From: Solirubrobacteraceae bacterium
GTDB taxonomy: Bacteria > Actinomycetota > Thermoleophilia > Solirubrobacterales > Solirubrobacteraceae
NCBI GenBank assembly: GCA_035547175.1
Contig: DASZVK010000097.1
Location: 1 to 31,922 of the forward strand
Reading direction: 5' to 3'
DNA length: 31,922 bases
The position numbers were made by a program, and so were the translations under genes. Below are positions 165 through 19,660 of the stretch, one piece after another. Positions within the stretch are counted from its first letter, which is position 1. Every line of letters starts with the position of its first letter. A model generated the notes under the pieces. That model worked only from the letters and a program-made list of their open reading frames with translations, ran no database searches and had not been told where the DNA came from.

Positions 165-192
165 TTGTCGTCCATCACCGACCCGCTATACG
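165..192 (+). promoter_or_regulatory. Promoter/operator P1 (TTGTCG-N16-TATACG), copy 1 of the shared cluster motif
   Basis: TTGTCGTCCATCACCGACCCGCTATACG, upstream of the GGAGGA RBS and GTG 219; aligns without gaps to 2929 and 13960. Confidence 0.6.
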
Positions 193-218
193 CGGTCGAT
201 CCGTCGATAGGAGGAGAC

Positions 219-1328
219 GTGGCCCTCAGGTTCGGTACCTACACGGAGATCCAGTGCCCGCCCGGCGGCGACCACGCCAAGCTGATCCACGACGCGCTCG
301 AGGTCGGCGTCGCCGCCGACCGGCTCGGATACGGCGTCTACTGCTGCGTCGAGCACCCGTGGTTCGAGCAGTTCTCGATCAGCACCGCGCCGCTGGCGCT
401 GTTCGCGACGCTGGCCCAGCGGACCAGGGACATCCGCTTCCGCGCTCTCTGCCACACGCTGCCGCTGCACAACCCGTTCGTCCTCGCCGGCGAGCTGGCG
501 CTCGCCGACATCCTGCTCGACGGGCGCTTCGACGTCGGCATCGGCCGCGGCCACGCGTGGCTGCAGGATCCGGCGAACATCGCCCTGGAGGAGAGCATCG
601 AGCGCTTCCCCGAGTGCGTCGACATCCTGCTGGCGGCCTGGACGAACGAGCGCTTCTCCTACGACGGCAAGCACTACAAGGCGCATGACCTCGCGGTCGT
701 GCCGCGGCCGCTGCAGAAGCCCCACCCGCCGATCTGGCAGGTCGGCACGAGCGCCAAGTGGGTGCCGCGCGCGGTCGAGAACGGCTGGGGGATCGCGCTC
801 GGCGGCCCGGCCCCGAACGTCGCCTTCGAGGAGGCGATCGCCCAGTACCACGCCGCCTGCGAGGCGGCCGGCAAGCCCTCGAACTTCGCCTACATCAAGG
901 CGGTCAACCTCGACGAGGACCACGACAGGGCCGTCGAGGAGGGGCGCGTGCCGCTGAAGGGCTTCATCGACTTCAACGTCTCGCCGATGGACTCGCTGGA
1001 CCGCAGCCCCGAGGGCCGCCAGCGCCTGATCGACGCCGGCTACGGCTTCTACGCCGCCGACGACTTCCCCAACACCCGCAACCTCTCCTACGAGCAGCTG
1101 CTCGACCACGAGATCGTCTACGCGGGCAGCCCGGAGCGCGTCGCCCAGCAGCTGATCGACCTCTGGGACCGCTTCCGGTTCGACGAGTTCTGCCTGATCT
1201 GCCACTACGGCGGCGTCGGGCTCGAGCAGTCGCTCAAGACCCAGGAGCTGTTCGCCACCAAGGTCAGGCCGCTCATGGAGCAGGCCGCCGAGAAGGCGTC
1301 CCGGAAGAGCTCGGTGGCCGCCCGCTGA
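219..1328 (+). CDS. LLM-class (luciferase-like) flavin-dependent oxidoreductase/monooxygenase, 369 aa
   Basis: RFGTY start, VEH motif, HTLPLHNPFVLAGELALADILLDGRFDVGIGRG, PRPLQKPHPPIW, GSPERV, FATKVRP; GGAGGA RBS before GTG 219 (ORF-track start at 165 lies in the promoter). Confidence 0.9.
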   Translation: MALRFGTYTEIQCPPGGDHAKLIHDALEVGVAADRLGYGVYCCVEHPWFEQFSISTAPLALFATLAQRTRDIRFRALCHTLPLHNPFVLAGELALADILLDGRFDVGIGRGHAWLQDPANIALEESIERFPECVDILLAAWTNERFSYDGKHYKAHDLAVVPRPLQKPHPPIWQVGTSAKWVPRAVENGWGIALGGPAPNVAFEEAIAQYHAACEAAGKPSNFAYIKAVNLDEDHDRAVEEGRVPLKGFIDFNVSPMDSLDRSPEGRQRLIDAGYGFYAADDFPNTRNLSYEQLLDHEIVYAGSPERVAQQLIDLWDRFRFDEFCLICHYGGVGLEQSLKTQELFATKVRPLMEQAAEKASRKSSVAAR

Positions 1329-1354
1329 GCGCGCGATCGGACCGGGAGCGCGCC

Positions 1355-2902
1355 ATGGCCCAGCACGATGCGATCGTCGTCGGCTCCGGCGTCAACGGCC
1401 TCGCCTGCGCGGCGCTGCTGGCCAAGGCGGGCTGGGACGTCTGCGTGCTCGAGCGCAACGACTGGCTCGGCGGTGCGATCCGCACCGCCGAGATCACGCA
1501 GCCGGGCTTCGCGCACGACGTCTTCAGCGCCTGGCACCCGCTGTGGGTCGGCGGGCCCGCGCACCCGCAGCTCGCCGCGGACCTCGCGCGCCACGGCCTC
1601 GAGTACCGCAACACCGACCTGCCGAGCGCGACCGCCTTCCCGGACGGCGACAGCGCCTTCCTGCTGCGCGGCGCCGAGGAGAACGCGCGCGAGCTGGGCC
1701 CCGAGTGGCACGACGCGCTCGCGCGCTTCCTGCCCAACGCCGACCTCGCCTTCGGCGTGCTGGGCACCGAGCTGTGGTCGCGCGCCGGCGCGGCGCTCGC
1801 CTGGCGGGCGATCCGCCGGCTGGGCCGCGAGGGCGCGCGCGACTTCGCCGGCGAGCTGCTCGTCTCCGCACGCGACTGGCTGGAGACGACGTTCGCCTCG
1901 CCGAAGGCGCACGGGCTGCTCGCGCCCTGGGTCCTGCACACCGGGCTGGGCCCGGACGCCGCCGCCTCGGGCTACATGGCGCAGGTGATCGCCGTCGCGA
2001 TCCAGGACGGCGGCCTGCCGATCCCCGTCGGCGGCGGAGCCCGGCTCGCCGACGCGCTCGTCGCCTACGTGCGCGAGCAGGGCGGGACGTGCCGGACGCG
2101 GGCCGACGTCGTCGGCGTCTTCTCCGGCGGCGTGCGGCTCGCCGACGGCGAGGTCGTCGCGGCGCGCCGGGCGGTCGTCTGCAACGTCACCCCGACGGCG
2201 CTCTACGGCGGCCTGCTGGAGGGCGCGCCGGCGGCGCCGACGCAGCGGCCGTTCCGCTACGGGCGCGCCGAGATGCAGATCCACTTCGCGCTCTCCGAGC
2301 CGCCGCGCTGGGCGGGCGACGAGCGCCTCGGCCGCACGGCGATCGTGCACCTCACGCCCGGCCTCGACGGCGTCTCGCGCGCGGTCAACGAGGCCGACCG
2401 CGGCCTGCTGCCGGCCGAGGCGACGATCGTCGTCGGCCAGCCGCTGACGATCGACCCCTCGCGGGCGCCCGACGGCAAGGGGATCCTCTGGATCCAGCTG
2501 CAGGAGCTGCCACGGCACGTCAAGGGCGACGCCGCGGGCGAGATCGACGCCGGCGACGGCGCCTGGACGGAGGACCTGCGCGAGCGCTACGCCGACCGCA
2601 TCCAGGCGCGCCTCGCGCGCCACGTCCCGAACCTGGAGCCCTCGATCCTGCGGCGCGTCGCGCTCTCGCCCGCCGACCTCGAGGCCGCCAACGTCAACCT
2701 CGTGGGAGGCGATCCCTACGGCGGCTCGCTGGCGCTCGACCAGAGCTTCCTCTGGCGCGCCCCGCACCGCACGCCGGCGCCCGGCGTCTGGCACGTCGGC
2801 GCCTCGACCCACCCGGGCCCCGGCCTCGGCGGCGGGTCGGGCGCGCTCGTCGCCGAGCAGCTCCTGCGCGGCTCGCCGCTGACGCGCCTGCTGCGCCGTT
2901 GA
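1355..2902 (+). CDS. Phytoene dehydrogenase-like NAD(P)/FAD-dependent oxidoreductase, 515 aa
   Basis: Rossmann start HDAIVVGSGVNGLACAALLAKAGWDVCVLERNDWLGGA; C-terminal GASTHPGPGLGGGSG; SPADLEAANVNLVGGDPYGG; ATG 1355 after GGGAG. Confidence 0.88.
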   Translation: MAQHDAIVVGSGVNGLACAALLAKAGWDVCVLERNDWLGGAIRTAEITQPGFAHDVFSAWHPLWVGGPAHPQLAADLARHGLEYRNTDLPSATAFPDGDSAFLLRGAEENARELGPEWHDALARFLPNADLAFGVLGTELWSRAGAALAWRAIRRLGREGARDFAGELLVSARDWLETTFASPKAHGLLAPWVLHTGLGPDAAASGYMAQVIAVAIQDGGLPIPVGGGARLADALVAYVREQGGTCRTRADVVGVFSGGVRLADGEVVAARRAVVCNVTPTALYGGLLEGAPAAPTQRPFRYGRAEMQIHFALSEPPRWAGDERLGRTAIVHLTPGLDGVSRAVNEADRGLLPAEATIVVGQPLTIDPSRAPDGKGILWIQLQELPRHVKGDAAGEIDAGDGAWTEDLRERYADRIQARLARHVPNLEPSILRRVALSPADLEAANVNLVGGDPYGGSLALDQSFLWRAPHRTPAPGVWHVGASTHPGPGLGGGSGALVAEQLLRGSPLTRLLRR

Positions 2903-2928
2903 GCCCCGGCTCGCGATATGGCGCGTCA

Positions 2929-2958
2929 TTGACGACGATCATAATTCCGTTATACGAT
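2929..2958 (+). promoter_or_regulatory. Promoter/operator P2 (TTGACG with TATACG/TACGAT), copy 2 of the shared motif
   Basis: AT-rich intergenic TTGACGACGATCATAATTCCGTTATACGAT; -35 TTGACG with TACGAT at 18-bp spacing; also a CGTCA-T-TGACG dyad at 2924-2934. Confidence 0.7.
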
Positions 2959-2975
2959 CGCCGCGGGGGTAGGGC

Positions 2976-3866
2976 TTGACGCCGCGCATCTCGGTCTCGC
3001 AGATCTCGACATTCCGATCGTCCTTCGCCGACGACGTCCGCGACTACGCCGCGGCCGGGCTCGACGGCATCGGCATCTGGGAGATGAAGCTGCCCGACGG
3101 CGGCGACGCCGAGTCGCTCGAGCTGCTCGAGGCCAGCGGGCTCGAGCGCGCCTCGGCGGTCACGGCCGTGCCGTCGATCCTGCCGATGCCGCTGCTCGGC
3201 CCGCCCGACGACCCCGCCGAGCGCCTGCACGCCTACTGCGCGTCGCTCGAGCGCCTCGCCGCCTTCGCGCCGGCCGCCGTTGTCTGCGTGACCGGCAGCG
3301 GCGCCGGGCGCGACCCCGACGAGGCGCGCTCGATCGTCGTCGAGGGCCTGCGGACGATCGGCGCCGAGGCCCAGCGCCTCGGCCTGCGCATCGCGCTGGA
3401 GCCCTACCAGCGGATCGACGGCGAGCCGTGGTCGATCGTCTTCTCGATCCCGGAGGCGATCGAGCTGCTGCGCGACGCGGGCGACCCGCCGGCGATCGGC
3501 ATCCAGTTCGACGTCTGGCACCTGTGGAACACGCCGACGCTATTCGACGACATCGCCTCCGAGATCGGCCGCTTCGCCGGCGTCCACGTCTGCGACTACC
3601 GCGACCCGCCGCGCGCCTGGGCCGACCGCGCGCTGCCCGGCGAGGGCGTCGCCGGCGTCCCGGCGATCCTGGCGGCGCTCGACGCCGCGGGCTGGGACGG
3701 CCTCTACGACGTCGAGATCTTCTCCGACGACGGCACGTTCGGAACCGAGCTGCCCGACTCCCACTGGGCCGCGCCGGCGCTCGAGACGCTGGCCCGCGCC
3801 CGCGATGCAGTGCGCCGGAGCCTTTCGCCGGCTCTAAACCAACCAACCAAGGACGAGGTGACATGA
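2976..3866 (+). CDS. Sugar phosphate isomerase/epimerase (xylose-isomerase-like TIM barrel, IolE-like), 296 aa
   Basis: Metal-ligand pattern LRIALEP...QFDVWH...HVCD...DVEIFS; LPGEG motif; TTG start. Confidence 0.8.
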   Translation: MTPRISVSQISTFRSSFADDVRDYAAAGLDGIGIWEMKLPDGGDAESLELLEASGLERASAVTAVPSILPMPLLGPPDDPAERLHAYCASLERLAAFAPAAVVCVTGSGAGRDPDEARSIVVEGLRTIGAEAQRLGLRIALEPYQRIDGEPWSIVFSIPEAIELLRDAGDPPAIGIQFDVWHLWNTPTLFDDIASEIGRFAGVHVCDYRDPPRAWADRALPGEGVAGVPAILAALDAAGWDGLYDVEIFSDDGTFGTELPDSHWAAPALETLARARDAVRRSLSPALNQPTKDEVT

Positions 3867-5053
3867 GGAGAGGACGCAGGAAGAGCGCCGCCGCGGTGCT
3901 CGCGATCGCGGCGATCGGCGCCGTCGGCGCCGTCGCGGCGACGAGCAGCAGCGCTGCGTCGACGCCGATCACGATCGGATGGGCGTACGACGCCACCGGG
4001 TCGATGGCGCCGTTCGACATGCCGGCGCTCGCCGCGGCGCAGCTGCGGGTCAAGCAGATCAACGCCAAGGGCGGCGTCAGCGGCCATCCGCTGAAGATCG
4101 CCACGTGCAAGACGCAGGGCAACAAGCCGGCGGTGGCCAAGGCGTGCGCGCTGAAGCTGATCAGCGGCGGCGCCAAGGTCGTCTTCTCGACGTGCGACGT
4201 CGACCTCGGCGCCCCCGTCGTGCAGGAGGCGATCAACCGCGGCATCCTCGCGGTCTCGCCGTGCATCGGCACCGACCAGATGGGCCCCAAGCGCTTCGGC
4301 AAGAAGGGCGCGCTGGCGTTCAGCTACGGCAACGTCGCCCAGGACGAGGGCTCGGCCATGGCCGACTTCGCGTGGAGCAAGGGCTGGAAGACGGCCGCGC
4401 TCGCGACCGACGGCGTGATCGTCTACTTCAAGGACGTCGTCGCCGCGTTCAAGGCCCGCTTCCAGCAGCTCGGCGGCAAGATCGCCGACGAGGAGACCTA
4501 CCACTCGCTCGGCGGCCACGACGTCAACAACACGATCAGCCGCCTGCAGGGCGTCAAGGCCGACGTGATCGTGACGGCGACGGCGGGCGCGTTCGGCGCG
4601 CTCTCGACGCTCGTCTCGGGCCTGCGCAGCGCCGGCGACAACACCCCGATCCTCAACTCGTGGGCGGGCGACGGCACGTACTGGCTGCCCAAGAGCCCGG
4701 CGGTGACCAACTACTGGTACGTCACGTTCGCGTCGGTCTTCGGCGACGACCCCAACCCGACGGTCAAGGCGATGGCCAAGCAGATCAAGGCGGCGACCGG
4801 CGGCTTCGTCACCGGCCCGGCGGCGATCGACGGCGTCGCGACCGCGATCCGCAGGGCGCACGGCTCGACCGACGGCGCCAAGCTGGCGTCGATCATGCAG
4901 TCCTTCAAGGACGTGTCGACGCTCTCCGGCGAGGTGAGCTTCTCGTCGAAGTGGCATACGGTGTTCGGACGCCAGTACCGGGTGATGAGCATCAACGACA
5001 ACAAGGCGAAGTTCGTCAAGCTCATCAGGGCCAAGGTCGTCCCGACGATCTGA
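3863..5053 (+). CDS. ABC transporter substrate-binding protein, LivK/Peripla_BP_6 type, 396 aa
   Basis: Basic-hydrophobic signal peptide, ITIGWAYDATG, INAKGGVSG; ATGA overlap with upstream stop; followed by LIV ATPases and permeases. Confidence 0.88.
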   Translation: MRRGRRKSAAAVLAIAAIGAVGAVAATSSSAASTPITIGWAYDATGSMAPFDMPALAAAQLRVKQINAKGGVSGHPLKIATCKTQGNKPAVAKACALKLISGGAKVVFSTCDVDLGAPVVQEAINRGILAVSPCIGTDQMGPKRFGKKGALAFSYGNVAQDEGSAMADFAWSKGWKTAALATDGVIVYFKDVVAAFKARFQQLGGKIADEETYHSLGGHDVNNTISRLQGVKADVIVTATAGAFGALSTLVSGLRSAGDNTPILNSWAGDGTYWLPKSPAVTNYWYVTFASVFGDDPNPTVKAMAKQIKAATGGFVTGPAAIDGVATAIRRAHGSTDGAKLASIMQSFKDVSTLSGEVSFSSKWHTVFGRQYRVMSINDNKAKFVKLIRAKVVPTI

Positions 5054-5054
5054 G

Positions 5055-5825
5055 TTGACGGCGCTCGCCTCAGCCGACGCGCAGCGGACGCCCGGGGAGA
5101 TCCTCCGGGCGTCCGCCGTGTCGCGCTCGTTCGACGGCGTGCAGGCGCTGCGCGGCGTCGACCTGGAGCTGGGGCGGGGCCACGTCGTCGGCCTGATCGG
5201 CCCCAACGGGGCCGGCAAGTCCACGCTCGTCAACGTGCTCAGCGGCTTCGACCGCCCCGACGAGGGCAGCGTCGCGCTCGGCGACCAGGACCTGACGAGC
5301 TGGCCACCCCACCGGCGCGGCCGCCACGGCCTCGCCCGCACCTTCCAGCACAGCCACGGGTTCCGCGCGCTGTCGGTGCGCGAGAACGTCGAGGTCTCGG
5401 CGCTCGGCGTCGGCGCCGGCCCGCGCGAGGCGGCGCGGCGCGCGAGCGCGCTGCTGGCCCGGCTCGGCCTCGACCGCTACGCCGACGCGCCCGCCGCCGC
5501 GCTGCCCCAGGGCGACGAGCGCCGCCTCGGCGTCGCCCGCGCGCTCGCCACCGAGCCGCGCTTCGTGCTGCTCGACGAGCCCGCCGCCGGGCTGCCCGAG
5601 GCCGAGGTCCCGGACTTCGCCGCGCTGGTCCGCTCGATCGCCGGCGAGCACGGGGCCGGCGTGCTGCTGATCGACCACAACATGGCGCTGATCATGGAGA
5701 CCTGCGACCACATCGTCGTGCTCGATCATGGGCAGGTGCTGGCCGGCGGCTCCCCCGAGCAGATCCGCTCCAACCTCGACGTCGCGGCCGCCTACCTCGG
5801 CGAGTCGCCGGTGCACGAGGCATGA
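5055..5825 (+). CDS. ABC transporter ATP-binding protein (LivG-like)
   Basis: Walker A GPNGAGKST, RTFQ, Walker B VLLDEPAAG, IDHNM; signature degenerate (LPQGD). Confidence 0.92.
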   Translation: MTALASADAQRTPGEILRASAVSRSFDGVQALRGVDLELGRGHVVGLIGPNGAGKSTLVNVLSGFDRPDEGSVALGDQDLTSWPPHRRGRHGLARTFQHSHGFRALSVRENVEVSALGVGAGPREAARRASALLARLGLDRYADAPAAALPQGDERRLGVARALATEPRFVLLDEPAAGLPEAEVPDFAALVRSIAGEHGAGVLLIDHNMALIMETCDHIVVLDHGQVLAGGSPEQIRSNLDVAAAYLGESPVHEA

Positions 5826-6523
5826 GCCTGCGGGTCGAGGGGCTGCGCGTGCGCTACGGCGGCGTCGAGGCCGTCCGCGAGCTGTCGCTGTCGGTGGCGC
5901 CGGGCGAGATCGTCTCGCTCGTCGGGCCCAACGGCGCCGGCAAGTCCTCGACGCTGCACGCGATCATGGGCCTCGCCCCGGCGAGCGGCAGCGTGCGCGT
6001 CGGCGAGCGCGAGCTGATCGGCGCGCAGCCCGAGGACATCGCCCGCGCCGGCGTGGCGCTCGTGCCCGAGAGCCGGCGCATCTTCGCCGAGCTGACCGTC
6101 GAGGAGAACCTGCGGCTGGGCCTCGCGGCGCGGCGCGCCAGGGGCGGCGAGCTCGAGCTGCTGGACTCGATCGTCGAGCTCTTCCCGATCGTCGGCCGGT
6201 TCCGCGCCCGCCACGCCGGCGCGCTCTCCGGCGGCCAGCAGCAGCAACTCGCGATCGCGCGCGCGCTCGCGGCCGAGCCCGACGTGATCCTGCTCGACGA
6301 GCCCTCGCTGGGCCTCGCGCCGCTGATCGTCGACGCGGTCTTCGACGCGCTGGCCGCGATCCGCGACCGCGGCCTCGCCGTGCTGCTCGTCGAGCAGCGC
6401 GCGCAGCGCGCCGTGGCCGCGGCGAGCCGCAGCCACGTCCTGGCCGGCGGCGTCGTGCGCGCGCAGCTGGGCCCGCAGGACGCGGGCGACCTCGACCGCC
6501 TCGTGGGGAGCTACCTGTCGTGA
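5822..6523 (+). CDS. ABC transporter ATP-binding protein (LivF-like)
   Basis: GPNGAGKSS, LTVEENL, LSGGQQQQLAIARAL, ILLDEPSLGLAP, LLVEQ. Confidence 0.93.
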   Translation: MSLRVEGLRVRYGGVEAVRELSLSVAPGEIVSLVGPNGAGKSSTLHAIMGLAPASGSVRVGERELIGAQPEDIARAGVALVPESRRIFAELTVEENLRLGLAARRARGGELELLDSIVELFPIVGRFRARHAGALSGGQQQQLAIARALAAEPDVILLDEPSLGLAPLIVDAVFDALAAIRDRGLAVLLVEQRAQRAVAAASRSHVLAGGVVRAQLGPQDAGDLDRLVGSYLS

Positions 6524-7410
6524 GCTTCACCTGGCAGACGCTCGCCGACGGCCTCTCGCTCGGCGCGATCTACGCGCTGATGGCGGTCGGCATCGGCCTC
6601 GTCTTCGGCGTGCTGCGGCTGGTCAACTTCGCCTACGGCCAGCTCGTCATGGCCGGGGCGTTCGCCCTGGCGATGGCCTCCCAGTGGGGCTGGCCGGTGT
6701 GGGCCGGGATCGTCCTCTGCTTCGCCGTGGTGCTCGTGCTGTCGGTGCTCATGGAGCGGCTCGTCTTCCGGCCGCTGCGCGGTCACGCGCCGGCGGTGAT
6801 GCTCGTCGCGACGTTCGCGGTCGCCTTCCTGCTGGAGAGCATCGCGCTGCTGTGGTTCGGCTCGCTGGGCAAGACCGCGGCGTCGCTGGCGACGCTCAAC
6901 CAGCCGTGGACGATCCTCGGCGTCGAGATCCGCAGGATCGCGATCGTCGCGATCCTCGTCGCCGCGGCCGCGCTGGTCGGCCTGCGGCTGCTGATCGACC
7001 GCACCTCGATCGGCCTGCACATGCGCGCCGCGTCGATGGACTTCTCGACCGCGCGGATGCTCGGCGTGCGCGCCAACCGCGTGATCTTCTTCGCGGTGCT
7101 GCTGTCCGGCGTGCTCGCCGCGATCGTCGCCGTGATGCTGACCGTGCAGACGCCGCTGGTGACGCCGGACTTCGCGCTCAACGACACGATCGTCGTGCTC
7201 GCCGGCGTCGTCGTCGGCGGGCTGAACCGGATCGTCCCGGCCACGCTCGGCGGCTTCCTGATCGGGTTCGTCAGCGGCCTGCTCGGCGGGGCGCTGCCGA
7301 CCGACCAGAGCCAGTACCTGCCGACGTTCGTGTTCGCCGCCGTGATCCTCGTGCTGTTGGTCCGCCCGCGCGGGCTGTTCGACCTCTCCCGCACCGTGGA
7401 GCGCGTGTGA
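6520..7410 (+). CDS. Branched-chain amino acid type ABC permease (LivH-like), 296 aa
   Basis: GLSLGAIYALMAVGIGLVFGVLRLVNFAYG, GLHMRAAS, ARMLGV, VVVGGL; GTGA overlap. Confidence 0.92.
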   Translation: MSFTWQTLADGLSLGAIYALMAVGIGLVFGVLRLVNFAYGQLVMAGAFALAMASQWGWPVWAGIVLCFAVVLVLSVLMERLVFRPLRGHAPAVMLVATFAVAFLLESIALLWFGSLGKTAASLATLNQPWTILGVEIRRIAIVAILVAAAALVGLRLLIDRTSIGLHMRAASMDFSTARMLGVRANRVIFFAVLLSGVLAAIVAVMLTVQTPLVTPDFALNDTIVVLAGVVVGGLNRIVPATLGGFLIGFVSGLLGGALPTDQSQYLPTFVFAAVILVLLVRPRGLFDLSRTVERV

Positions 7411-8468: not shown

Positions 8469-8481
8469 GACAAGGAGCACC

Positions 8482-9282: not shown

Positions 9283-9285
9283 GCG

Positions 9286-11454: not shown

Positions 11455-13118
11455 TGTCGAGCTGGTCCGAGGGGCGCCGGCCGATCACGCTCGCCATCCT
11501 CGCCCTCGGCGGCGAGGGCGGCGGCGTGCTGGCCGACTGGATCGTCGCGCTCGCCGAGCACGGCGGCTGGACGGCGCAGAACACGTCGGTGGCGGGCGTC
11601 GCCCAGCGCACCGGCGCCACCGTCTACTACGTCGAGATGCTGCCGCCGCCGGGCGAGGGCGACCCGCGGCCCGCCGCCCTCGGCGAGGGCCGCGCCGCGC
11701 CGGTGATGAGCATCTTCCCCACCCCCGGCGAGGTCGACGTCGTCATCGCCTCCGAGCTGATGGAGTCCGGGCGCGCGATCCAGCGCGGCTTCGCGACGCC
11801 CGACCGCACGACGCTGATCGCCTCGACCAGCCGCGTCTACTCGATCGACGAGAAGATGGCGCTCGGCGACGGCCGCGTCGACGGCGCCGAGCTGCTGGCG
11901 GCCGCCGCGCGCTCCTCCAAGCGGCTCGTCGCCGCCGACTTCGCCAGGCTCGCCGAGCAGGCGGGCACGGTCATCAGCGCGTCGCTGTTCGGCGCGCTGG
12001 CCGGCTCGGGCGCGCTGCCCTTCGCGCGCGAGCAGTTCGAGGAGCGCATCCGCGCCTTCGGCAAGGGCGTCGAGGCGTCGCTGGCGGGCTTCGCCGCCGG
12101 CTACGAGGCGGCGACCGCCGAGCCGCCGCGGCCCGCCGCCGAGCCGGCCACCTCCGCGGCGCTGCCGATCACCGCCTGGCCGCCGGGCGACGCGCCCGCG
12201 CCGCTCGACGACGAGGAGGCGGCCAAGGAGGCCGAGGAGCGGCGCCGCAACGAGATCGCCGCCGCCGACCCGGCGTCGCTCGTCGGCCCGGACCTGCGCG
12301 AGCTCGCGCAGCGCGTCGCCGAGCTGCCCGCGGCGTCGCGCTCGATGGCGCTGCACGGCATCGTCCGCACCGCCGTCTACCAGGACGTCGCCTACGCCGA
12401 GCGCTACCTCGAGCGCCTCGGCCGCTTCGCCGCGGTCGAGCCCGACCCCGGCGGGGCCGCCGCGCTGACGACCGAGGCGGCGCGCCACGTCGCGCTGTGG
12501 ATGGCCTACCAGGACACGATCCACGTCGCGCTGCAGAAGACCCGCCAGCAGCGCATGGAGCGCATCCGCGACGAGGCCCGGGCGCGTCCGGGCGATCTCG
12601 TCGAGGTGCGCGAGTTCCTGCATCCGCAGATCGACGAGATCACCGACACGATGCCCTCGCGGCTCGGCGCGCGGCTGCGCGAGGCGCGCTGGTTCGGCGG
12701 CCTCGTCCACCGGCTCACGCACAAGGGGATGATCCTCAACACCAGCTCGGTGTGGGGCTACACGCTGCTGAGCACGCTGGCGCGCATGCGGCCGCTGCGA
12801 CCGCGCTCGCTGCGCTTCGTGCGCGAGCAGGCGGCGATCGAGGCCTGGCTCGAGCAGGCGCTGGCGGCCGCCGAGGCCGACCCCGAGCTCGCCCGCGAGA
12901 TCGTCGAGTGCCAGCGCGTGCTCAAGGGCTACGGGGCGACGCACGCGCACGGCTCGGAGAGCTTCGCGAAGCTGATGGCGGCGGCCCGCTCGCTGGTCGG
13001 CGAGCCCGGCGCCGCCGGTCGCCTGGCGGCGCTGCGCGACGCGGCGCTGGCCGACGAGGACGGCAGGGCCCTGGACGCGGCGCTCGCCGCGCCGGCGCAG
13101 ACGGGCGAGGGCGGCTAG
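11454..13118 (+). CDS. iorB: Indolepyruvate oxidoreductase beta subunit family protein, long form with C-terminal extension, 554 aa
   Basis: ALGGEGGGVLADW, GVAQRTGAT, VDVVIASELME; C-terminal domain with CQRVLKGYG; TGATG overlap with iorA. Confidence 0.88.
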   Translation: MSSWSEGRRPITLAILALGGEGGGVLADWIVALAEHGGWTAQNTSVAGVAQRTGATVYYVEMLPPPGEGDPRPAALGEGRAAPVMSIFPTPGEVDVVIASELMESGRAIQRGFATPDRTTLIASTSRVYSIDEKMALGDGRVDGAELLAAAARSSKRLVAADFARLAEQAGTVISASLFGALAGSGALPFAREQFEERIRAFGKGVEASLAGFAAGYEAATAEPPRPAAEPATSAALPITAWPPGDAPAPLDDEEAAKEAEERRRNEIAAADPASLVGPDLRELAQRVAELPAASRSMALHGIVRTAVYQDVAYAERYLERLGRFAAVEPDPGGAAALTTEAARHVALWMAYQDTIHVALQKTRQQRMERIRDEARARPGDLVEVREFLHPQIDEITDTMPSRLGARLREARWFGGLVHRLTHKGMILNTSSVWGYTLLSTLARMRPLRPRSLRFVREQAAIEAWLEQALAAAEADPELAREIVECQRVLKGYGATHAHGSESFAKLMAAARSLVGEPGAAGRLAALRDAALADEDGRALDAALAAPAQTGEGG

Positions 13119-13948
13119 TGGCCAACGGCAACGGCTTCCCCCCGCGCGCCCTGCTGCTGACCGTGCTGGGCGCCTACGTGCGGCGGCTCGACGAGTGGAT
13201 CTCGATCGCCGGGCTGATCCGGCTGATGGACGAGCTCGGCGTCGACGAGCAGTCGGTGCGCTCGGCCGTCTCGCGCTTCAAGCGCCGCGGGATCGTCGTC
13301 CCCGAGCGCCGCGGCGGGGCGGCCGGCTACCGGATGAGCGAGTCGGGGCACCGGCTGCTGGAGGAGGGCGACGCGCGGATCTACGGTCGGCCGCGGGCGG
13401 CGCTGCTCGACGACGGCTGGGTCCTCGCCGTCTTCTCGGTGCCGGACTCCAAGCGCGCCGACCGCCACGCGCTGCGCTCGCTGCTGGCCTGGCTGGGCTA
13501 CGGGAACCTGTCCTCGGCGGTCTGGATCGCCCCGTGGCACGTCGAGGCCGAGACGCGCGAGGCGCTCGTCCGCCGCGGCCTGGCCGGCTACGTGCAGATG
13601 TTCCGCGCCCACTACGAGGCGTTCGGCACGCCCGCCGACCTCGTCGCGCAGTCGTGGGACCTCGCCGAGCTGCGAGCCCGCTACGTGGCCTTCCAGCGGG
13701 CGGCCGCGCCGATGGCGAGGCGCTGGCGCTCGCAGACGCCCGGCGGCCGCGACGCGTTCGTCGACCACGTGCTCGTGCTGTCGGAGTGGCGGCCGCTGCC
13801 GTTCCTCGACGCGGGCCTGCCGGTCGAGGCGCTGCCGCGCGACTGGCCCGGCCCGCGCGCGTGGGAGACGTTCCACGGGCTGGTCGAGCGGCTCGAGGGC
13901 CCGGCGTTCGACTACGTCCGCGAGGCGATCGGCGATGCGGCCAAATAG
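13118..13948 (+). CDS. paaX: PaaX-family transcriptional regulator, 276 aa
   Basis: LLLTVLGAY, SVRSAVSR wHTH, WVLAVFSVP, LGYGNL...VWIAP, WDLAEL, DAGLPVEALPRDWPG; TAGTG overlap. Confidence 0.9.
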   Translation: MANGNGFPPRALLLTVLGAYVRRLDEWISIAGLIRLMDELGVDEQSVRSAVSRFKRRGIVVPERRGGAAGYRMSESGHRLLEEGDARIYGRPRAALLDDGWVLAVFSVPDSKRADRHALRSLLAWLGYGNLSSAVWIAPWHVEAETREALVRRGLAGYVQMFRAHYEAFGTPADLVAQSWDLAELRARYVAFQRAAAPMARRWRSQTPGGRDAFVDHVLVLSEWRPLPFLDAGLPVEALPRDWPGPRAWETFHGLVERLEGPAFDYVREAIGDAAK

Positions 13949-13959
13949 GTAGTGCTGTG

Positions 13960-13987
13960 TTGACGACCGTCACAGAGACGCTATGTT
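13960..13987 (+). promoter_or_regulatory. Promoter/operator P3 (TTGACG-N16-TATGTT), copy 3 of the shared motif
   Basis: TTGACGACCGTCACAGAGACGCTATGTT, containing a perfect dyad TGACG-AC-CGTCA over the -35. Confidence 0.7.
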
Positions 13988-14015
13988 TGGAGCTGCGATG
14001 GCGATGCGCCCGGGG

Positions 14016-16379
14016 ATGAGGATCGCGGTGTCCGGCGGAGGACCCGCCGGCCTGTACTTCGCGATCCTCATGAAGCGCTCCCAGCCGGCGCACGAGATCA
14101 CCGTCTGGGAGCGCAACGCGCCCGACGACGCGTTCGGCTTCGGCGTCGTCTTCTCCGACGAGACGCTGACCGTCTTCGAGCACGCCGACCCGGAGAGCTA
14201 CGCGGCGATCACCGAGCAGTTCGCGCGCTGGACGGACATCGACATCCACCTGCGCGGCCAGGTGATCACCTCCGGCGGCCACGGCTTCGCCGCGCTCGGC
14301 CGGCGAGCGCTGCTGGGCATCCTCCAGCGTCGCGCGCTCGAGCTCGGGGTGACGATCCACTTCAACGCCGAGACGCCGCCCTACGAGGAGCTCGCCTCGC
14401 ACGACCTCGTGCTCGCCGCCGACGGCCTCAACAGCGCCCTGCGCCACCGCTTCGCCGAGACGTTCCGGCCGTCGCTGGACCCGCGCCGCTGCCGCTACAT
14501 GTGGCTCGGCACGGACCTCGTCTTCGACTCCTTCAAGTTCTTCGTCAAGGAGACCGAGCACGGCATCGTCCAGGTCCACGGCTACCCCTACGACGCGACG
14601 ATGAGCACGTTCATCGTCGAGGCCGGCGAGCGCTTCTGGCAGGGCGCCGGCCTGGACGCGATCGCGACCGAGGGCCTCGGCCCGGGCGAGAGCGACGAGG
14701 CGAGCATCGCCTTCTGCGCCGAGCTGTTCGCCGACGAGCTCGGAGGCCACGCGGTCGTGTCCAACAACTCCAAGTGGCTGCGCTTCACGACGGTCCGCAA
14801 CGAGCGCTGGCGCCACGAGAACGTCGTCCTGATCGGCGACGCCGCGCACACCGCGCACTTCTCGATCGGCTCAGGGACGAAGCTGGCGATGGAGGACGCG
14901 GTCGCGCTGGCGTGGGCCTTCCACGAGAACGGCGACGACCTCGACGCCGCCGTCGCCGCCTACGAGGCCGAGCGGCGCCCGATCGTGGAGAGCACCCAGC
15001 GCGCCGCCCAGGCCAGCCTCGAGTGGTTCGAGGGCATCGACCGCTACGCCGGCCAGGACGCGCTGCAGCTCGCCTTCAACCTGCTCACGCGCAGCCGCCG
15101 GATCACGCACGCGGAGCTGACGCTGCGCGACGCGCCGTTCGTGCGCCGCGTCGAGGAGGAGGCGCTCGACGCGCGGGTGGGCGGGCACGAGGTCGACGGC
15201 CGCATGCCGCCGCCGATGTTCACGCCGCTGCGCCTGCGCGACGTCGAGCTGGCCAACCGCGTCGTCGTCTCGCCGATGGACATGTACTCGGCCGTCGACG
15301 GCGTTCCCGGCGACTTCCACCTCGTCCACCTGGGCAGCCGCGGCCAGGGCGGCGCCGGCCTGGTCATGACCGAGATGGTCTGCGTCTCGGCGCGCGGGCG
15401 GATCACCCCCGGCTGCACCGGCCTCTACGCGCCCGAGCACCTGCCCGCGTGGAGGCGGATCGTCGACTACGTCCACGCCCACGGCGGCGCGCGGTTCGGC
15501 TGCCAGATCGGCCACTCGGGGCGCAAGGGCTCGACGAAGCGGATGTGGGAGGGCATCGACCAGCCGCTCGAGGACGGCAACTGGCCGCTGATCGCGCCCT
15601 CGCCGCTGCCCTACTACGCCCACAGCCAGGTCCCGCGCGAGATGACGCGGGCGGACATGGACGAGGTCCGCGACCAGTTCGTCGCCTCGGCGCGGATGGC
15701 GGCCGAGGCGGGCTTCGACCTGCTCGAGGTCCACGCCGGCCACGGCTACCTGCTGTCGTCGTTCCTCTCGCCGCTGACCAACCGCCGCACGGACGAGTAC
15801 GGCGGCAGCCTCGAGAATCGCGCCCGCTTCGTGCTCGAGGTGTTCGACGCCTGCCGCGCCGTCTGGCCCGAGCATCTGCCGATGTCGATGCGGATCTCGG
15901 CGACCGACTGGGCGCCGGGCGGCTTCGACGGCGACGACGCGGTCGCCTTCGCGCGCATGCTCAAGCAGCACGGCTGCGACCTCGTCGACGTGTCCACGGG
16001 CCAGGTCGTCCACGACCAGCGGCCCGCCTTGGGGCGCAGCTTCCAGACGCCGTTCGCCGACCGGATCCGCAACGAGGTCGGCATCCCGGTGATCGCGGTC
16101 GGCGCGATCTCGTCCTACGACGACGTCAACACGATCATCCTCGCCGGCCGCGCCGACCTGTGCGCGCTCGGCCGCCCGCACCTCTACGACCCGCATTGGA
16201 CGCTGCACGCGGCGGCCGAGCAGGAGTGGCCCCACGTCGCCTGGATCTCGCCCTACCAGGCCGGCCGTCGCCGGCCGGTGACGGGCAAGGACGCGGCCGC
16301 CAAGCCGGCCCCGCGCACGTTCGCCGGGCCCGCCGCCGAGCCGCAGCCGACGCTGTCCCGCCCGCCGATCGAAGCCTAG
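14016..16379 (+). CDS. Bifunctional 2-aminobenzoyl-CoA monooxygenase/reductase or salicylyl-CoA 5-hydroxylase/oxidoreductase (FAD monooxygenase fused to Old Yellow Enzyme domain), about 787 aa
   Basis: [45 protein letters not shown]; OYE half [50 protein letters not shown]; alternative ATGs at 13983/13998/14004. Confidence 0.9.
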
Positions 16380-16389
16380 GAGCGCCCCC

Positions 16390-16809
16390 TTGCCCGACCA
16401 CGAGATCGTCAACCCGCCCTCGCTGCCCAAGCCGTCGGGCTTCAGCCACGGCGTGCGCGCCGGCGACGTCGTCCACCTCGCCGGCCAGACGGCGCTGGAC
16501 GCGGACATGAGGATCGTCGGCGAGACGATCGTCGAGCAGTTCCGCCAGGCGCTGGGCAACGTGCTGACGACGCTGCTCGAGGCCGGCGGCGAGCCGCGGG
16601 ACCTCGTCAGCCTGACGATCTACCTCACCGACGTCGCCGACTACCAGCGCCACGGCCGCGAGATCGGCGCCGTCTACCGCGAGCTGATCGGCGACTGGTA
16701 CCCGGCGATGGCCGGGATCGGCGTCACCGGGCTCTGGCAGCCCGAGGCGCTGATCGAGATCCAGGGCGTCGCCGTGATCCGCCAGCCCAGCCCCACCGAT
16801 CCCGCCTGA
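16390..16809 (+). CDS. RidA/YjgF family protein, 139 aa
   Basis: PSGFSHG, LAGQT, PAM..., LIEIQGVA; TAGGAG RBS before TTG. Confidence 0.88.
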   Translation: MPDHEIVNPPSLPKPSGFSHGVRAGDVVHLAGQTALDADMRIVGETIVEQFRQALGNVLTTLLEAGGEPRDLVSLTIYLTDVADYQRHGREIGAVYRELIGDWYPAMAGIGVTGLWQPEALIEIQGVAVIRQPSPTDPA

Positions 16810-16835
16810 ACCTTCCGACCACTGGAGGAGCCGTC

Positions 16836-17270
16836 ATGTCCGACACCATCAGCGAGGCCGTCCCGGTCGTCACCCGCGCCGGCCACGAGGACCAGCAGAC
16901 CGGTCAGTCCGGCGGCTGCGTGCGCGTCTCCGGCGTCGGCCCGCAGCACACGCCGGCGACGAGGATCTGGTTCGGCCGCGTCAGCAACGAGCCCGGCTAC
17001 CGCTCGCTGCCCCACCACCACGGCGAGGCCGAGACCGGCGGCTACGTGCTCAAGGGCGTCGGGCGCATCTACTACGGCGAGGGCTACCGCACGTGGGTCG
17101 AGATGACCGAGGGCGACTTCGTCTTCGTGCCGCCGCACATGCCCCACGTCGAGTGCAACATGAGCACGACCGACGAGCTGGTGTGGCTGACGTGCCGCAC
17201 GCCCGACAACATCGTCGTCAACCTGCCCGACGTCGAGGACTCCGAGCTGGAGGGGTACCGGCGAGCATGA
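16836..17270 (+). CDS. Cupin domain protein, 144 aa
   Basis: PHHHGEAET and GDFVFVPPHMPHVE cupin motifs; GGAGGAG RBS. Confidence 0.88.
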   Translation: MSDTISEAVPVVTRAGHEDQQTGQSGGCVRVSGVGPQHTPATRIWFGRVSNEPGYRSLPHHHGEAETGGYVLKGVGRIYYGEGYRTWVEMTEGDFVFVPPHMPHVECNMSTTDELVWLTCRTPDNIVVNLPDVEDSELEGYRRA

Positions 17271-18130
17271 CCGCCATGCCGATGCTGGCCGCGCTCGAGC
17301 TGCGGCCGGTGGGCGAGGCGTCCTTCGAGGCCACGCCCCAGCGCGTCCCCTGGCCGAAGGCGTACGGCGGCGACCTGGTCGCCGCCGCGCTCGCCGCCGC
17401 CGACCGGACCGTCGAGCCGGGCCGCGCCGTGCACTCGATGCACAGCTACTTCATGCGCCCGGCCGAGATCCTGCAGCCGGTCCGCTACGACGTCGAGGTC
17501 CTGCGCGACGGACGCTCCTACGGCACGCGCGAGGTGCGGGCGTTCCAGGACGACAGGCTGATCTACATCGCGCTGGTCTCCTACCACGTGCGCGAGCGAG
17601 GGCTCGCGCACCAGGCGCAGATGCCCGACGTCCCGGAGCCGGAGTCGCTGCCCTCCAGCGCGCAGGCGCTCGCGGGCGTCGAGGGCCCGGCGGCCGACTA
17701 CTGGTCGCACGACCGCAGCTTCGACATGCGCCACATCCCCTCGCCGGTGTACCTGAGCGTCGAGGGCGAGCACACGGGCCAGCAGGCGCTGTGGCTGAGG
17801 TCGTTCGGCCCGCTGGCCGACGATCCCGCGCTGCACCGGGTCGCGCTCGCCTACGCCTGCGACTACACGATCCTCGAGCCGGTCCTGCGCGCCCACGGCT
17901 ACGCGTGGATGGACGACGGCCTCGTGACCGCGAGCCTCGACCACGCGATGTGGTTCCACCGCGACGGCCGCGTCGACGACTGGGTGCTCTACGTCCAGAA
18001 CGCGGAGTCCGCCCAGGACGGACGCGGGCTGGCGCGCGGGCACTTCTTCTCGCGCGACGGCGTCCACATCGCGACGGTCCTGCAGGAGGGCGTGATCCGC
18101 ACCCCGGCCGCGGCGACCGCCGGCCGCTAG
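17267..18130 (+). CDS. Acyl-CoA thioesterase II (TesB-like double hotdog), 287 aa
   Basis: YGGDLVAAAL, HSMHSYF, RDGRSY, YACDYTIL, ASLDHAMWFHR; ATGA overlap. Confidence 0.88.
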   Translation: MTAMPMLAALELRPVGEASFEATPQRVPWPKAYGGDLVAAALAAADRTVEPGRAVHSMHSYFMRPAEILQPVRYDVEVLRDGRSYGTREVRAFQDDRLIYIALVSYHVRERGLAHQAQMPDVPEPESLPSSAQALAGVEGPAADYWSHDRSFDMRHIPSPVYLSVEGEHTGQQALWLRSFGPLADDPALHRVALAYACDYTILEPVLRAHGYAWMDDGLVTASLDHAMWFHRDGRVDDWVLYVQNAESAQDGRGLARGHFFSRDGVHIATVLQEGVIRTPAAATAGR

Positions 18131-18139
18131 GAGGCGACG

Positions 18140-19084
18140 GTGGACTTCGGCGTCTTCCTGCCCGTGTCGGGCCGCGCAGCGAGCCGCGGCGGCCTGACCC
18201 ACGCGGCGCGCAAGGCCGAGGAGCTGGGCTTCACGGCGGTCTGGGCCGCCGACCGGATCGTGATCCCGTGGAGGATCGAGACGACCTACAACTACAACTG
18301 GTCGGGGCAGTTCTTCGTGCCGCCCGAGGCGGCGTTCCTCGAGCCGCTGACGGTCCTCGCGTTCCTCGCCGGGGCGACCGAGAGGATCCGCCTCGGCGTC
18401 AGCGTGCTCGTCGGCCCGTACCGCGACCCGGTGTACTGGTCGAAGGTCGTCGCCTCGATCGACCAGCTCTCGGAGGGACGCTTCGTCCTCGGCTTCGGCG
18501 TCGGCTGGATGCCGGAGGAGTTCGCCGCGCTGGGCAGGGCGGAGCACTTTGCGCCGCGCGGCAGGGTCGCCGACGAGCAGCTCGCGATCTTCAGGACGCT
18601 GACGCGCGACGAGCACGCCAGCCACGACGGCGAGTTCTTCGCCTTCGACGACGTCGCCTTCCAGCCCAAGGGCTTCCGCGGGCCGGGCTCGATCCCGGTG
18701 TGGGTCGGCGGCGAGGCCAGGCCCTCGCAGCGCCGCGCCGGCCGCGCCGGCGACGCCTGGTTCCCGTACTTCCCGCGCGTGACGCCCGACGAGCTGGCCC
18801 GCCGCTACGCCTACGTGCTCGAGACGGCCGAGGCCGCCGGGCGCGACCCGCACGACGTCGCGCTGCACTGCTGCCTGTCGGTCGAGGTCACGCCCGAGCC
18901 GGTCGAGCAGGAGCCCGACCTCCTGCGCGGCAGCCCCGAGCAGGTCGTCGAGCGCCTGGCCGCGTTCGCCGAGGTCGGCGTGCAGCACTGCGCGCTGCAG
19001 TTCCTCGTCGGCCGCTACCCCGAGCGCGTCGAGCAGATGGAGCGCTTCGCCGCGCAGGCGCGGGCCGACGGGCTGCTCGGGTAG
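18140..19084 (+). CDS. LLM-class oxidoreductase, probably F420-dependent (Rv2161c/TIGR03619-like), 314 aa
   Basis: AEELGFTAVWAADRIVIP, EPLTVLAFLAGATERIRLG, IDQLSEGRFVLGFGVGWMPEEF, QPKG, GSPEQV. Confidence 0.85.
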   Translation: MDFGVFLPVSGRAASRGGLTHAARKAEELGFTAVWAADRIVIPWRIETTYNYNWSGQFFVPPEAAFLEPLTVLAFLAGATERIRLGVSVLVGPYRDPVYWSKVVASIDQLSEGRFVLGFGVGWMPEEFAALGRAEHFAPRGRVADEQLAIFRTLTRDEHASHDGEFFAFDDVAFQPKGFRGPGSIPVWVGGEARPSQRRAGRAGDAWFPYFPRVTPDELARRYAYVLETAEAAGRDPHDVALHCCLSVEVTPEPVEQEPDLLRGSPEQVVERLAAFAEVGVQHCALQFLVGRYPERVEQMERFAAQARADGLLG

Positions 19085-19592: not shown

Positions 19593-19660
19593 GGAAGTCC
19601 TCTTCCGGCGTCCGAAGGGCTAGATAGTCAACTCCGCTGCGCCCCCTGTCGTGTCCCGTC

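Follow-up and report, generated by a model that had tools for sequence, protein, structure and literature searches.

The 31.9-kb contig DASZVK010000097.1, analysed here in its entirety as the window (73% G+C), belongs to a 2.7-Mb, 92.6%-complete metagenome-assembled genome of a soil member of the Solirubrobacteraceae, and carries at positions 219-19084 a real and conserved catabolic cluster of 17 genes (g1 to g17). We consider it probable that the region 165-19084, which includes an upstream operator-like motif, channels isatin, or a compound from which oxidation yields isatin, into the 2-aminobenzoyl-CoA (anthraniloyl-CoA) pathway without the use of a CoA ligase. The chain predicted in the initial annotation of this DNA, from an isatin hydrolase through a 2-oxoacid oxidoreductase of the IorAB type to a fusion of an FAD monooxygenase with an OYE reductase (hereinafter the FAD+OYE enzyme), gains strong comparative support from synteny as a putative route. 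The cluster is a variant of known pathways rather than a novel kind of system, and its central module is widespread.

Genes were called by third-position GC frame analysis combined with inspection of start codons. They are arranged in three units, all on one strand, as had been annotated previously; the gene count comes to 17 rather than the 16 given there.

219-2902, + strand: unit 1, g1-g2
2976-13948, + strand: unit 2, g3-g12, ten genes
13983/14016-19084, + strand: unit 3, g13-g17

Every overlap of the ATGA, GTGA and TGATG types that had been claimed to couple the genes across 2976-13948 could be located: ATGA overlaps are found at 3863 and 5822 (as well as at 17267 in unit 3), GTGA overlaps at 6520 and 7407, and stop/start junctions of the forms TGATG at 11454 and TAGTG at 13118. 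The other gaps within units measure 1-26 bp, and the only larger ones are the two spacers between units (73 bp at 2903-2975 and 34 bp at 13949-13982). Pfam and NCBIfam searches upheld all the protein families that had been named earlier. The genes that carry the argument are the following.

8482-9282, + strand: g9, isatin hydrolase-family Mn-dependent cyclic amidohydrolase, 266 amino acids (aa), recognised by PDB matches
9286-11454, + strand: g10, IorA-type thiamine/Fe-S alpha subunit of a 2-oxoacid:acceptor oxidoreductase, 722 aa (PF02775)
11454-13118, + strand: g11, long IorB beta subunit with DUF6537, 554 aa (PF01558 + PF20169)
13118-13948, + strand: g12, PaaX-family repressor, 276 aa (PF07848, PF20803, PF08223)
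14016-16379, + strand: g13, FAD monooxygenase + OYE reductase fusion (PF01494 + PF00724)
16390-16809, + strand: g14, RidA-family enamine/imine deaminase, 139 aa (PF01042, E 1.8e-21)
16836-17270, + strand: g15, small metal-binding monocupin, 144 aa (PF07883)
17267-18130, + strand: g16, TesB-type acyl-CoA thioesterase II, 287 aa (PF02551, PF13622, PF20789)

Judged by its sequence, g9 is a member of the isatin-hydrolase family with one deviating feature, its signature tetrapeptide. It matches over its full length two isatin hydrolases that have been both crystallised and assayed (PDB 5NMP, E 7e-81; 4J0N, E 5e-75), whereas the match to kynurenine formamidase (4CO9/4CZ1) reaches only E 4.6e-6. Using the determinants that Sommer et al. 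2018 (PMC6117287) give for isatin hydrolases and KynB, we find in g9 the Mn motif HHGTHFDAPIH, shared by all 83 of the 83 clade members examined, an aromatic pocket PAWAW that aligns with PAWYW of RsIHA and is present in 75 of 82 clade members, and the aligned catalytic Asp-His-His residues; the I(L/I)E glutamate typical of KynB is lacking. The initial annotation had allowed for a grouping of this cyclase with KynB, and g9 instead groups with the solved isatin hydrolases. LaIHA and LaIHB of Labrenzia aggregata and RsIHA of Ralstonia solanacearum (EC 3.5.2.20) have full-length similarity, Mn motif, pocket and Asp-His-His residues in common with g9 and differ from it in the signature, which reads GLQC/GLAS in them and GLTQ in g9. 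The RsIHA gene, moreover, lies in a cluster of the same type as that in the window.

The neighbours of g9 orthologues indicate what becomes of the hydrolase product. A scan with one genome per species returned 80 loci at 54-76% identity, from Thermoleophilia, Rubrobacteria, Actinomycetes, Acidimicrobiia, Dormibacterota and Chloroflexota, the closest relatives of the window being Solirubrobacterales; the genes of these loci were called and clustered, recurrent families were annotated, and the hydrolase itself was called in 79 of the 80. A thiamine-dependent 2-oxoacid enzyme directly adjoins the hydrolase in 73 of these 79 loci. In 55 it is a decarboxylase-like protein of ~540 aa that uses thiamine diphosphate (ThDP) and falls in no curated subfamily, in 13 a split ThDP enzyme, and in 5 IorB, IorAB being likewise the neighbour in the window. 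In most of the loci the hydrolase has the ThDP enzyme as its sole companion, and an oxidase is absent. Since the neighbour is ThDP-dependent in 73 of 79 loci, the hydrolase product appears to be passed consistently to an enzyme that decarboxylates 2-oxoacids; isatinate (2-aminophenylglyoxylate) fits as that product because it is a 2-oxoacid, which the products of formamidases are not. In a tree of the hydrolases, orthologues linked to IorAB are interspersed with those linked to a decarboxylase, such that the well-supported branches require at least 5 switches, a pattern that fits repeated displacement between two enzymes acting on one substrate. Of these two, one would yield an aldehyde and the other a CoA thioester. 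On sequence grounds the hydrolase-adjacent ThDP enzyme is a candidate, and apparently undescribed, isatinate decarboxylase. In 68 of the 79 loci it falls below every NCBIfam cut-off (e.g. L061:10770-12398; L006, upstream of 10001). Five Solirubrobacterales loci with IorAB also encode PaaX and the FAD+OYE enzyme, together with RidA, an SDR, enoyl-CoA hydratase and acyl-CoA dehydrogenase, and RidA occurs in 11 hydrolase loci in all, mainly next to the monooxygenase/reductase.

The chemistry proposed for g10/g11 has precedents in the phenylglyoxylate:acceptor oxidoreductase of Azoarcus/Thauera and the archaeal indolepyruvate:ferredoxin oxidoreductase, which use thiamine diphosphate and Fe-S centres for the CoA-dependent oxidative decarboxylation of aryl 2-oxoacids to acyl-CoA. 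The same reaction type is envisaged here for a two-subunit enzyme of a distinct subfamily with a long, DUF6537-containing beta subunit. The thiamine motif GDG-x27-NN of g10 lies at residue 485, and its Cys clusters at 413/416/443, 624/630/636 and 660/663/666/676; its best curated match is TIGR03336 (IOR-alpha, E 4.6e-75), and g11 exceeds the cut-off of NF006179 (699 vs 348 bits). More than 7400 homologues of g11 are present in public data, the best 120 of which are all at least 67% identical to it, with cultured Rhodococcus, Nocardia, Conexibacter, Baekduia and Patulibacter among their sources. None of 400 further genomes sampled from the phylum yielded IorB, and NF006179 exceeds its cut-off in 1 of 301 sampled genomes of the class; we take these low tallies as effects of sampling or filtering rather than as absence, because the protein database holds the close Conexibacter, Baekduia and Patulibacter homologues.

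We read eight independent IorB contexts, and in 7 of them a cyclase is encoded within 10 kb of IorB. Flavoprotein here denotes a homologue of g2, the FAD oxidoreductase of unit 1.

Rhodococcus opacus: g2-like flavoprotein, cyclase, IorA, IorB, PaaX and ligase, then the SDR / IndA1 / IndA2B / DLH indole-oxidation genes
Hoyosella: IndA2B, IndA1, SDR, AraC, flavoprotein, cyclase, IorA and IorB; farther away FAH, bicupin, thioesterase, FAD+OYE enzyme, carbon-nitrogen hydrolase and PaaX
Nocardia farcinica: FAD+OYE enzyme, thioesterase, ligase, RidA, FAH, small cupin, flavoprotein, cyclase, IorA and IorB
Conexibacter woesei: PaaX, IorA, IorB and cyclase
Rhodococcus erythropolis: RidA, flavoprotein, cyclase, IorA and IorB
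Patulibacter: indole-monooxygenase-type gene, PaaX, IorAB and flavoprotein, with no cyclase
Caballeronia plasmid: Liv-type ABC system, IorAB, thioesterase, FAD+OYE enzyme, bicupin, FAH, carbon-nitrogen hydrolase, racemase-family protein, MarR and cyclase
Ralstonia solanacearum megaplasmid: the same gene set as the Caballeronia plasmid

The set is therefore kept in Thermoleophilia, Mycobacteriales and Betaproteobacteria. Co-conservation, on which the initial annotation had made its case depend, is thus present, and the restriction to actinobacteria implied there does not hold, the module being found in Ralstonia and Caballeronia too. The R. solanacearum cyclase gene is 100% identical to PDB 5NMP over residues 83-265, so that the one assayed isatin hydrolase whose genomic context was read belongs to the same gene set; identities of this locus to the window amount to 45% for the g2-like flavoprotein, 63% for IorA, 57% for IorB and 53% for the monooxygenase/reductase. 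In strain SL3103 the hydrolase frame (L124:1678-2259) spans just residues 83-265 and is missing from the plasmid gene table, and this copy may be frameshifted or pseudogenised. We also observed that IorA is 77-83% identical between the window and Rhodococcus, Nocardia and Hoyosella (L114, L115, L116, L120-L122), a range that covers the Conexibacter protein as well, while its neighbours are much less alike (hydrolase 48-55%, PaaX 31-48%); the high identity suggests very strong constraint on IorA or its recent transfer between classes.

The lower half of the cluster, g12-g16, consists of gene-for-gene homologues (39-72% identity) of the anthranilate lower-pathway operon on plasmid pAL1 of Arthrobacter sp. 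Rue61a, with PaaX, RidA, cupin, thioesterase and FAD+OYE enzyme all in common. For this half the label "undescribed" that the initial annotation had used must be withdrawn, as it matches a published and partly characterised operon (PMC3534580). The pAL1 operon differs in having an ATP-dependent ligase, verified as an anthranilate-CoA ligase (Niewerth et al. 2012, PMC3534580), and an FAH hydrolase, both lacking from the window cluster. In place of the ligase the window cluster has the isatin hydrolase and IorAB, and no AMP-binding (ligase) gene is present anywhere in the window. Anthranilate-grown Rue61a cells contained anthraniloyl-CoA, a presumed hydroxyanthraniloyl-CoA, and an ester consistent with a deaminated cyclohexanedione-carboxyl-CoA (PMC3534580). 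These CoA esters make 2-aminobenzoyl-CoA the most likely substrate of g13 and deamination by RidA plausible, and by analogy g13 is probably an aroyl-CoA 5-hydroxylase/reductase acting on 2-aminobenzoyl-CoA.

Consistent with this, g13 exceeds the cut-off of NF006101 (1215.5 vs 1078 bits), which places it in the same two-flavin fusion family as Azoarcus evansii's 2-aminobenzoyl-CoA monooxygenase/reductase (abm) and SdgC of Streptomyces sp. WA46. It is 62% identical to the pAL1 protein, 65% to that of N. farcinica and 50-53% to those of Hoyosella, Caballeronia and Ralstonia. In-frame alternative starts lie at 13983, 13998 and 14004; because the alignment to the family model does not begin before residue 12 of the open reading frame starting at 13983, the actual start is probably 14016 or 13998/14004. 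The abm clusters of A. evansii are reportedly also built with an SDR, enoyl-CoA hydratase and acyl-CoA dehydrogenase, and in the sdg pathway thioester cleavage and a gentisate dioxygenase are said to come after SdgC. An SDR, enoyl-CoA hydratase and acyl-CoA dehydrogenase accompany the FAD+OYE enzyme in relatives of the window (L004, L011, L013, L014, L016, L048); the window itself differs from abm in that a cupin, a thioesterase and an F420-type oxidoreductase take the place of the beta-oxidation genes, and in having no aryl-CoA ligase. As to the smaller proteins, g14 is 65-66% identical to RidA of the N. farcinica and pAL1 clusters, the value for pAL1 being 66%, g15 shows the His/Glu cupin motifs and is 79% and 72% identical to the cupins of N. 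farcinica and pAL1, respectively, and g16 matches TIGR00189 (E 7.9e-69) and is 55% identical to the pAL1 thioesterase. A protein atlas look-up with g15 returned just an unnamed cupin cluster.

The sole FAH gene of the window (29394-30182, - strand) lies 10 kb off the cluster, behind the housekeeping genes for sigma-70, FolE2 and ClpP; its product shares 44% identity with the FAH protein encoded in the N. farcinica cluster and may or may not serve the same pathway. Hoyosella, Caballeronia and Ralstonia (L122, L123, L124) have a lower set in common that comprises thioesterase, FAD+OYE enzyme, FAH, carbon-nitrogen hydrolase and an Asp/Glu-racemase-family protein, with a bicupin or cupin annotated in Hoyosella and Caballeronia. 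From its gene content this set would fit cleavage of the 5-hydroxyanthranilate ring to an amide, followed by hydrolysis, deamidation and maleate isomerisation.

On this basis the following sequence of steps can be proposed. By virtue of its family, g9 would hydrolyse the lactam of isatin to isatinate. Chemistry and conserved context suggest that g10/g11 would then oxidatively decarboxylate isatinate in the presence of CoA to yield 2-aminobenzoyl-CoA. The aroyl-CoA would be hydroxylated, and possibly reduced, at C5 by g13, for which the family is clear and the substrate predicted. In the further conversion, in whatever order, g14 would remove the amino group from an enamine/imine intermediate, and the thioesterase g16 and cupin g15 would act on the product in the manner of their pAL1 homologues. 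Finally, g12 would repress all three units at a shared operator-like motif, with release probably brought about by the aroyl-CoA.

The putative regulatory element on which this last step would depend is a 25-bp motif, TTGWCGWCNNTCAYN5CGYTAT, found upstream of all three units (165, 2929, 13960) and with no further match at up to one mismatch in the 2.7-Mb genome.

165-189, + strand: motif copy 1, promoter/operator-like, upstream of g1, with a degenerate TGACGNNCGTCA half-palindrome (2 mismatches)
2929-2953, + strand: motif copy 2, upstream of g3
13960-13984, + strand: motif copy 3, in the 34-bp gap between paaX and g13, with a perfect palindrome TGACGACCGTCA at 13961-13972

The palindrome form TGACGNNCGTCA is perfect in the paaX/g13 gap and likewise perfect upstream of a PaaX gene of pAL1 (L125:18319), so that both systems carry it in a promoter gap beside a PaaX gene; a further copy with one mismatch lies in the RidA/FAH promoter gap of pAL1. 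The ATG at 13983, one of the alternative starts of g13, falls inside the third motif copy, and the g13 transcript perhaps has a short leader. The repressor g12 is the sole PaaX of the genome and is 39% identical to both PaaX-type regulators of pAL1. It scores below the cut-off of the phenylacetate PaaX equivalog (TIGR02277, 142.7 vs 264.55 bits), and neither PaaA nor PaaC was found in the 92.6%-complete genome; given their absence and the single PaaX, g12 is unlikely to serve phenylacetate catabolism. MeqR2, a PaaX-type repressor of pAL1, is reported (Niewerth et al. 2013) to bind this palindrome and to be released by anthraniloyl-CoA, which serves here as a lead rather than as evidence.

The remaining genes of the cluster encode a transporter and several oxidoreductases.

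219-1328, + strand: g1, luciferase-like monooxygenase/oxidoreductase, 369 aa (PF00296, E 1.6e-46)
1355-2902, + strand: g2, CrtI/CrtO/amine-oxidase-like FAD oxidoreductase, 515 aa (PF01593/PF01266)
2976-3866, + strand: g3, xylose-isomerase-like TIM-barrel protein, 296 aa (PF01261, E 7.8e-30)
3863-5053, + strand: g4, Liv-type (Peripla_BP_6) solute-binding protein (PF13458, E 5.3e-40)
5055-5825, + strand: g5, ABC ATPase, LivG/LivF-like (PF00005; NCBIfam LivG/UrtE-like)
5822-6523, + strand: g6, ABC ATPase, LivG/LivF-like (PF00005; NCBIfam LivG/UrtE-like)
6520-7410, + strand: g7, BPD_transp_2 permease (PF02653)
7407-8468, + strand: g8, BPD_transp_2 permease (PF02653)
18140-19084, + strand: g17, F420-dependent luciferase-like oxidoreductase, 314 aa (TIGR03619, 221.5 vs a cut-off of 166.9 bits)

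Among the upstream genes g2 is the sole conserved partner of the hydrolase: homologues at 33-47% identity adjoin or lie close to the cyclase/IorAB genes of R. opacus, N. farcinica, Hoyosella, Patulibacter, R. erythropolis and R. solanacearum. Its best NCBIfam match is the ketolase CrtO (E 8e-46, far below the cut-off), which suggests, speculatively, an oxidation of oxindole or dioxindole at C3 to isatin; g2 is accordingly our best, if speculative, candidate for an isatin-forming dehydrogenase. The initial annotation had instead assigned the formation of isatin to the luciferase-like enzymes, a role that finds no support, as these enzymes are not co-conserved. A good ribosome-binding site, AGGAGGAGAC, precedes g1, which scores below every NCBIfam subfamily cut-off, and the N-terminus of g4 is signal-like, Arg/Ala-rich and hydrophobic. 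PDB searches with g1, g2, g3, g4 and g15 gave family-level matches without a clue to substrate, those of g3 being to sugar-isomerase-like proteins only, and a protein atlas look-up with g2 returned just an unnamed phytoene-desaturase-like cluster.

Two systems that degrade related compounds are instructive in comparison. The iad locus for auxin degradation encodes IadA/IadB, homologous to IorA/IorB, the cyclase-family amidase IadI, the Rieske oxygenase IadCDE and a MarR regulator (PMC9613470), and its pathway runs through C8 intermediates of the isatin/isatinate type to anthranilate; nine Variovorax genes suffice for anthranilate formation, iadA and iadB not being among them, and the papers name IadA/IadB without assigning a reaction to them (PMC9613470; bioRxiv 10.1101/2025.10.25.684584). 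Like the iad loci of Variovorax, Bradyrhizobium and Achromobacter, the window encodes homologues of IorA/IorB, an amidase of the cyclase family and the binding protein of a Liv-type ABC system. In contrast, IadCDE, the genes of IadFGH side-chain removal (acyl-CoA synthetase/thiolase) and MarR have no counterparts in 219-19084, a Pfam/NCBIfam scan of which returned neither a Rieske oxygenase nor a MarR; the distinction from iad loci drawn earlier on these two features agrees with Conway 2022 (PMC9613470). With the iad hallmarks absent and nothing auxin-specific in the cluster, the auxin link made in the initial annotation is unsupported. The iif / IndA1-IndA2B clusters of Acinetobacter sp. O153 and Rhodococcus opacus 1CP encode an indole monooxygenase that was not found in the window or its genome, and the iif route reaches free anthranilate by a cofactor-independent oxygenase, not via isatinate and CoA as proposed here. 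In R. opacus and Hoyosella, however, the module of flavoprotein, hydrolase and IorAB is physically joined to the IndA1/IndA2B indole monooxygenase genes and an SDR, and the review of Heine 2018 mentions 'indolepyruvate' genes near indole-monooxygenase clusters (PMC6165268).

Several observations weigh against the proposed pathway. Beyond the family assignment of the hydrolase, its reactions are deduced from gene context. The hydrolase itself reads GLTQ in place of the GLQC/GLAS signature, as do 66 of 83 clade members, and some Dormibacterota and Chloroflexota loci place an orthologue with tryptophan dioxygenase and kynureninase, so that in some lineages it may have a formamidase role. By sequence g10/g11 fall in a long-beta bacterial subfamily distinct from the characterised archaeal IOR, and g10 stays below the cut-off of the archaeal IOR-alpha equivalog (253 vs 651 bits). 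The cluster contains no gene for a ferredoxin or other acceptor, and an Fe-S 2-oxoacid oxidoreductase that feeds an O2-dependent monooxygenase is unusual, although the pairing also occurs in aerobes such as Rhodococcus. As to the source of isatin, tblastn with the R. opacus proteins found no indole monooxygenase in the genome, and g1, g3, g17 and the transporter are missing from nearly all related clusters. Finally, the statistics of the 25-bp motif are partly circular because the three sites themselves served to define it, the motif was not seen in the loci of relatives, and the GC-rich genome contains the 12-bp palindrome at 17 places.

The best curated match of g10, to the IOR-alpha model, invites the reading that IorAB is an arylpyruvate (indolepyruvate/phenylpyruvate) ferredoxin oxidoreductase that forms arylacetyl-CoA in aromatic amino-acid catabolism or auxin formation, in which case g2 with its amine-oxidase domain would be an amino-acid oxidase, PaaX, from the regulator family of the phenylacetate pathway, would sense phenylacetyl- or indoleacetyl-CoA, and TesB would free arylacetate; a PaaK-like ligase beside PaaX-IorAB in C. 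woesei could be taken in the same sense. We regard this as improbable. The PaaA/PaaC epoxidase was not found in the genome, g12 scores below the PaaX equivalog cut-off and matches the anthranilate-pathway regulators of pAL1, and arylacetyl-CoA is the wrong type of substrate for the adjacent aroyl-CoA hydroxylase. Further, an isatin hydrolase accompanies IorAB in 7 of 8 contexts, IorAB is linked directly to the thioesterase and monooxygenase/reductase in Proteobacteria, and in 68 other loci the hydrolase has another 2-oxoacid enzyme as its partner while an amino-acid oxidase is lacking.

A second alternative is that the three units are juxtaposed by chance, the pathway being confined to g9-g16 while g1-g8 and g17 serve an unrelated imported substrate. 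The absence of g1, g3, g17 and the transporter from nearly all related clusters would suit this view, as would the post hoc definition of the shared motif and its lack of conservation among relatives. It too appears unlikely, since translational coupling of g3-g12 ties the transporter genes to those for the hydrolase, IorAB and PaaX, the motif is restricted to the three unit starts in 2.7 Mb, g2 is elsewhere a conserved partner of the hydrolase, and Caballeronia also has a Liv-type ABC system beside IorAB.

KynB lies within the cyclase fold, and tryptophan 2,3-dioxygenase and kynureninase are encoded near hydrolase orthologues of some phyla (in 6 and 11 loci, respectively), from which one could construct a kynurenine route: g9 would be an N-formylkynurenine formamidase, g2 would oxidise kynurenine to the corresponding 2-oxoacid, and IorAB would give 2-aminobenzoylacetyl-CoA, to be thiolysed to 2-aminobenzoyl-CoA, with the Liv-type transporter suited to an amino acid. 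Such a route is very improbable here, as g9 is ~75 orders of magnitude closer to isatin hydrolases than to KynB and lacks the KynB glutamate, neither tryptophan 2,3-dioxygenase nor kynureninase was found in the 92.6%-complete genome, the cluster has no thiolase, and most hydrolase loci, made up of hydrolase and ThDP enzyme alone, include no oxidase. Equally remote is an oxygen analogue, in which a substrate of the 2-hydroxyphenylglyoxylate type would give salicylyl-CoA and then gentisyl-CoA as in the Streptomyces sdg pathway, for although NCBI names the g13 family NF006101 salicylyl-CoA 5-hydroxylase and a thioesterase and cupin come after g13, the enzymes co-conserved with the monooxygenase/reductase handle nitrogen, RidA in the window, Nocardia, pAL1 and 11 hydrolase loci and a carbon-nitrogen hydrolase in Hoyosella, Caballeronia and Ralstonia, anthranilate is the compound degraded in the closest characterised context, pAL1 (62% identity; PMC3534580), and the upstream enzyme is an isatin (lactam) hydrolase.

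Elsewhere on the contig, 19164-22336 after the cluster contains a SnoaL-like gene (- strand), PadR, DUF1810, an unassigned 142-aa open reading frame and a two-domain protein of the VOC/glyoxalase fold, possibly an extradiol dioxygenase; SnoaL-like genes likewise adjoin the indole-monooxygenase/IorAB region of Patulibacter. At 25589-28654 three coupled genes encode a thiolase-like protein, in which the C-terminal thiolase domain alone was detected, an OB-fold protein of the DUF35/ChsH2 type and an MDR enzyme resembling crotonyl-CoA carboxylase/reductase, and a regulator of the ArsR type is convergent to them; this trio appears unrelated to the isatin cluster.

Returning to the isatin pathway, many soil, plant- and host-associated bacteria degrade indole, auxin and other tryptophan-derived signals via isatin and anthranilate, yet no gene has been assigned to the step following isatinate, and the IorAB-like genes of the iad (iadA/iadB) and Rhodococcus indole-monooxygenase clusters are still unexplained. 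The literature searched, which did not cover subscription journals, contained neither a proposal for a step from isatin or isatinate to a CoA ester or by a decarboxylase nor an assignment of IorAB as an isatinate oxidoreductase. We therefore put forward a more general hypothesis, to which we give about an even chance: that the long-beta IorAB subfamily, IadA/IadB included, is an isatinate:acceptor oxidoreductase that makes 2-aminobenzoyl-CoA without ATP, that the CrtO-like flavoprotein forms isatin, that PaaX senses the aroyl-CoA, and that elsewhere the ThDP enzyme is a non-oxidative isatinate decarboxylase. Cultured carriers of these genes exist in Rhodococcus opacus, Nocardia farcinica, Conexibacter woesei and Ralstonia solanacearum. 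If the hypothesis is true, it would provide a function for a very widespread enzyme subfamily with more than 7000 public homologues and thousands of members in Actinomycetota and Pseudomonadota, and explain the recovery of isatin, often termed a dead-end product. It would likewise define an ATP-saving, ligase-free route from oxidised indoles to aroyl-CoA, and supply a genetic basis for the old observations of an indole-isatin-anthranilate-gentisate sequence.

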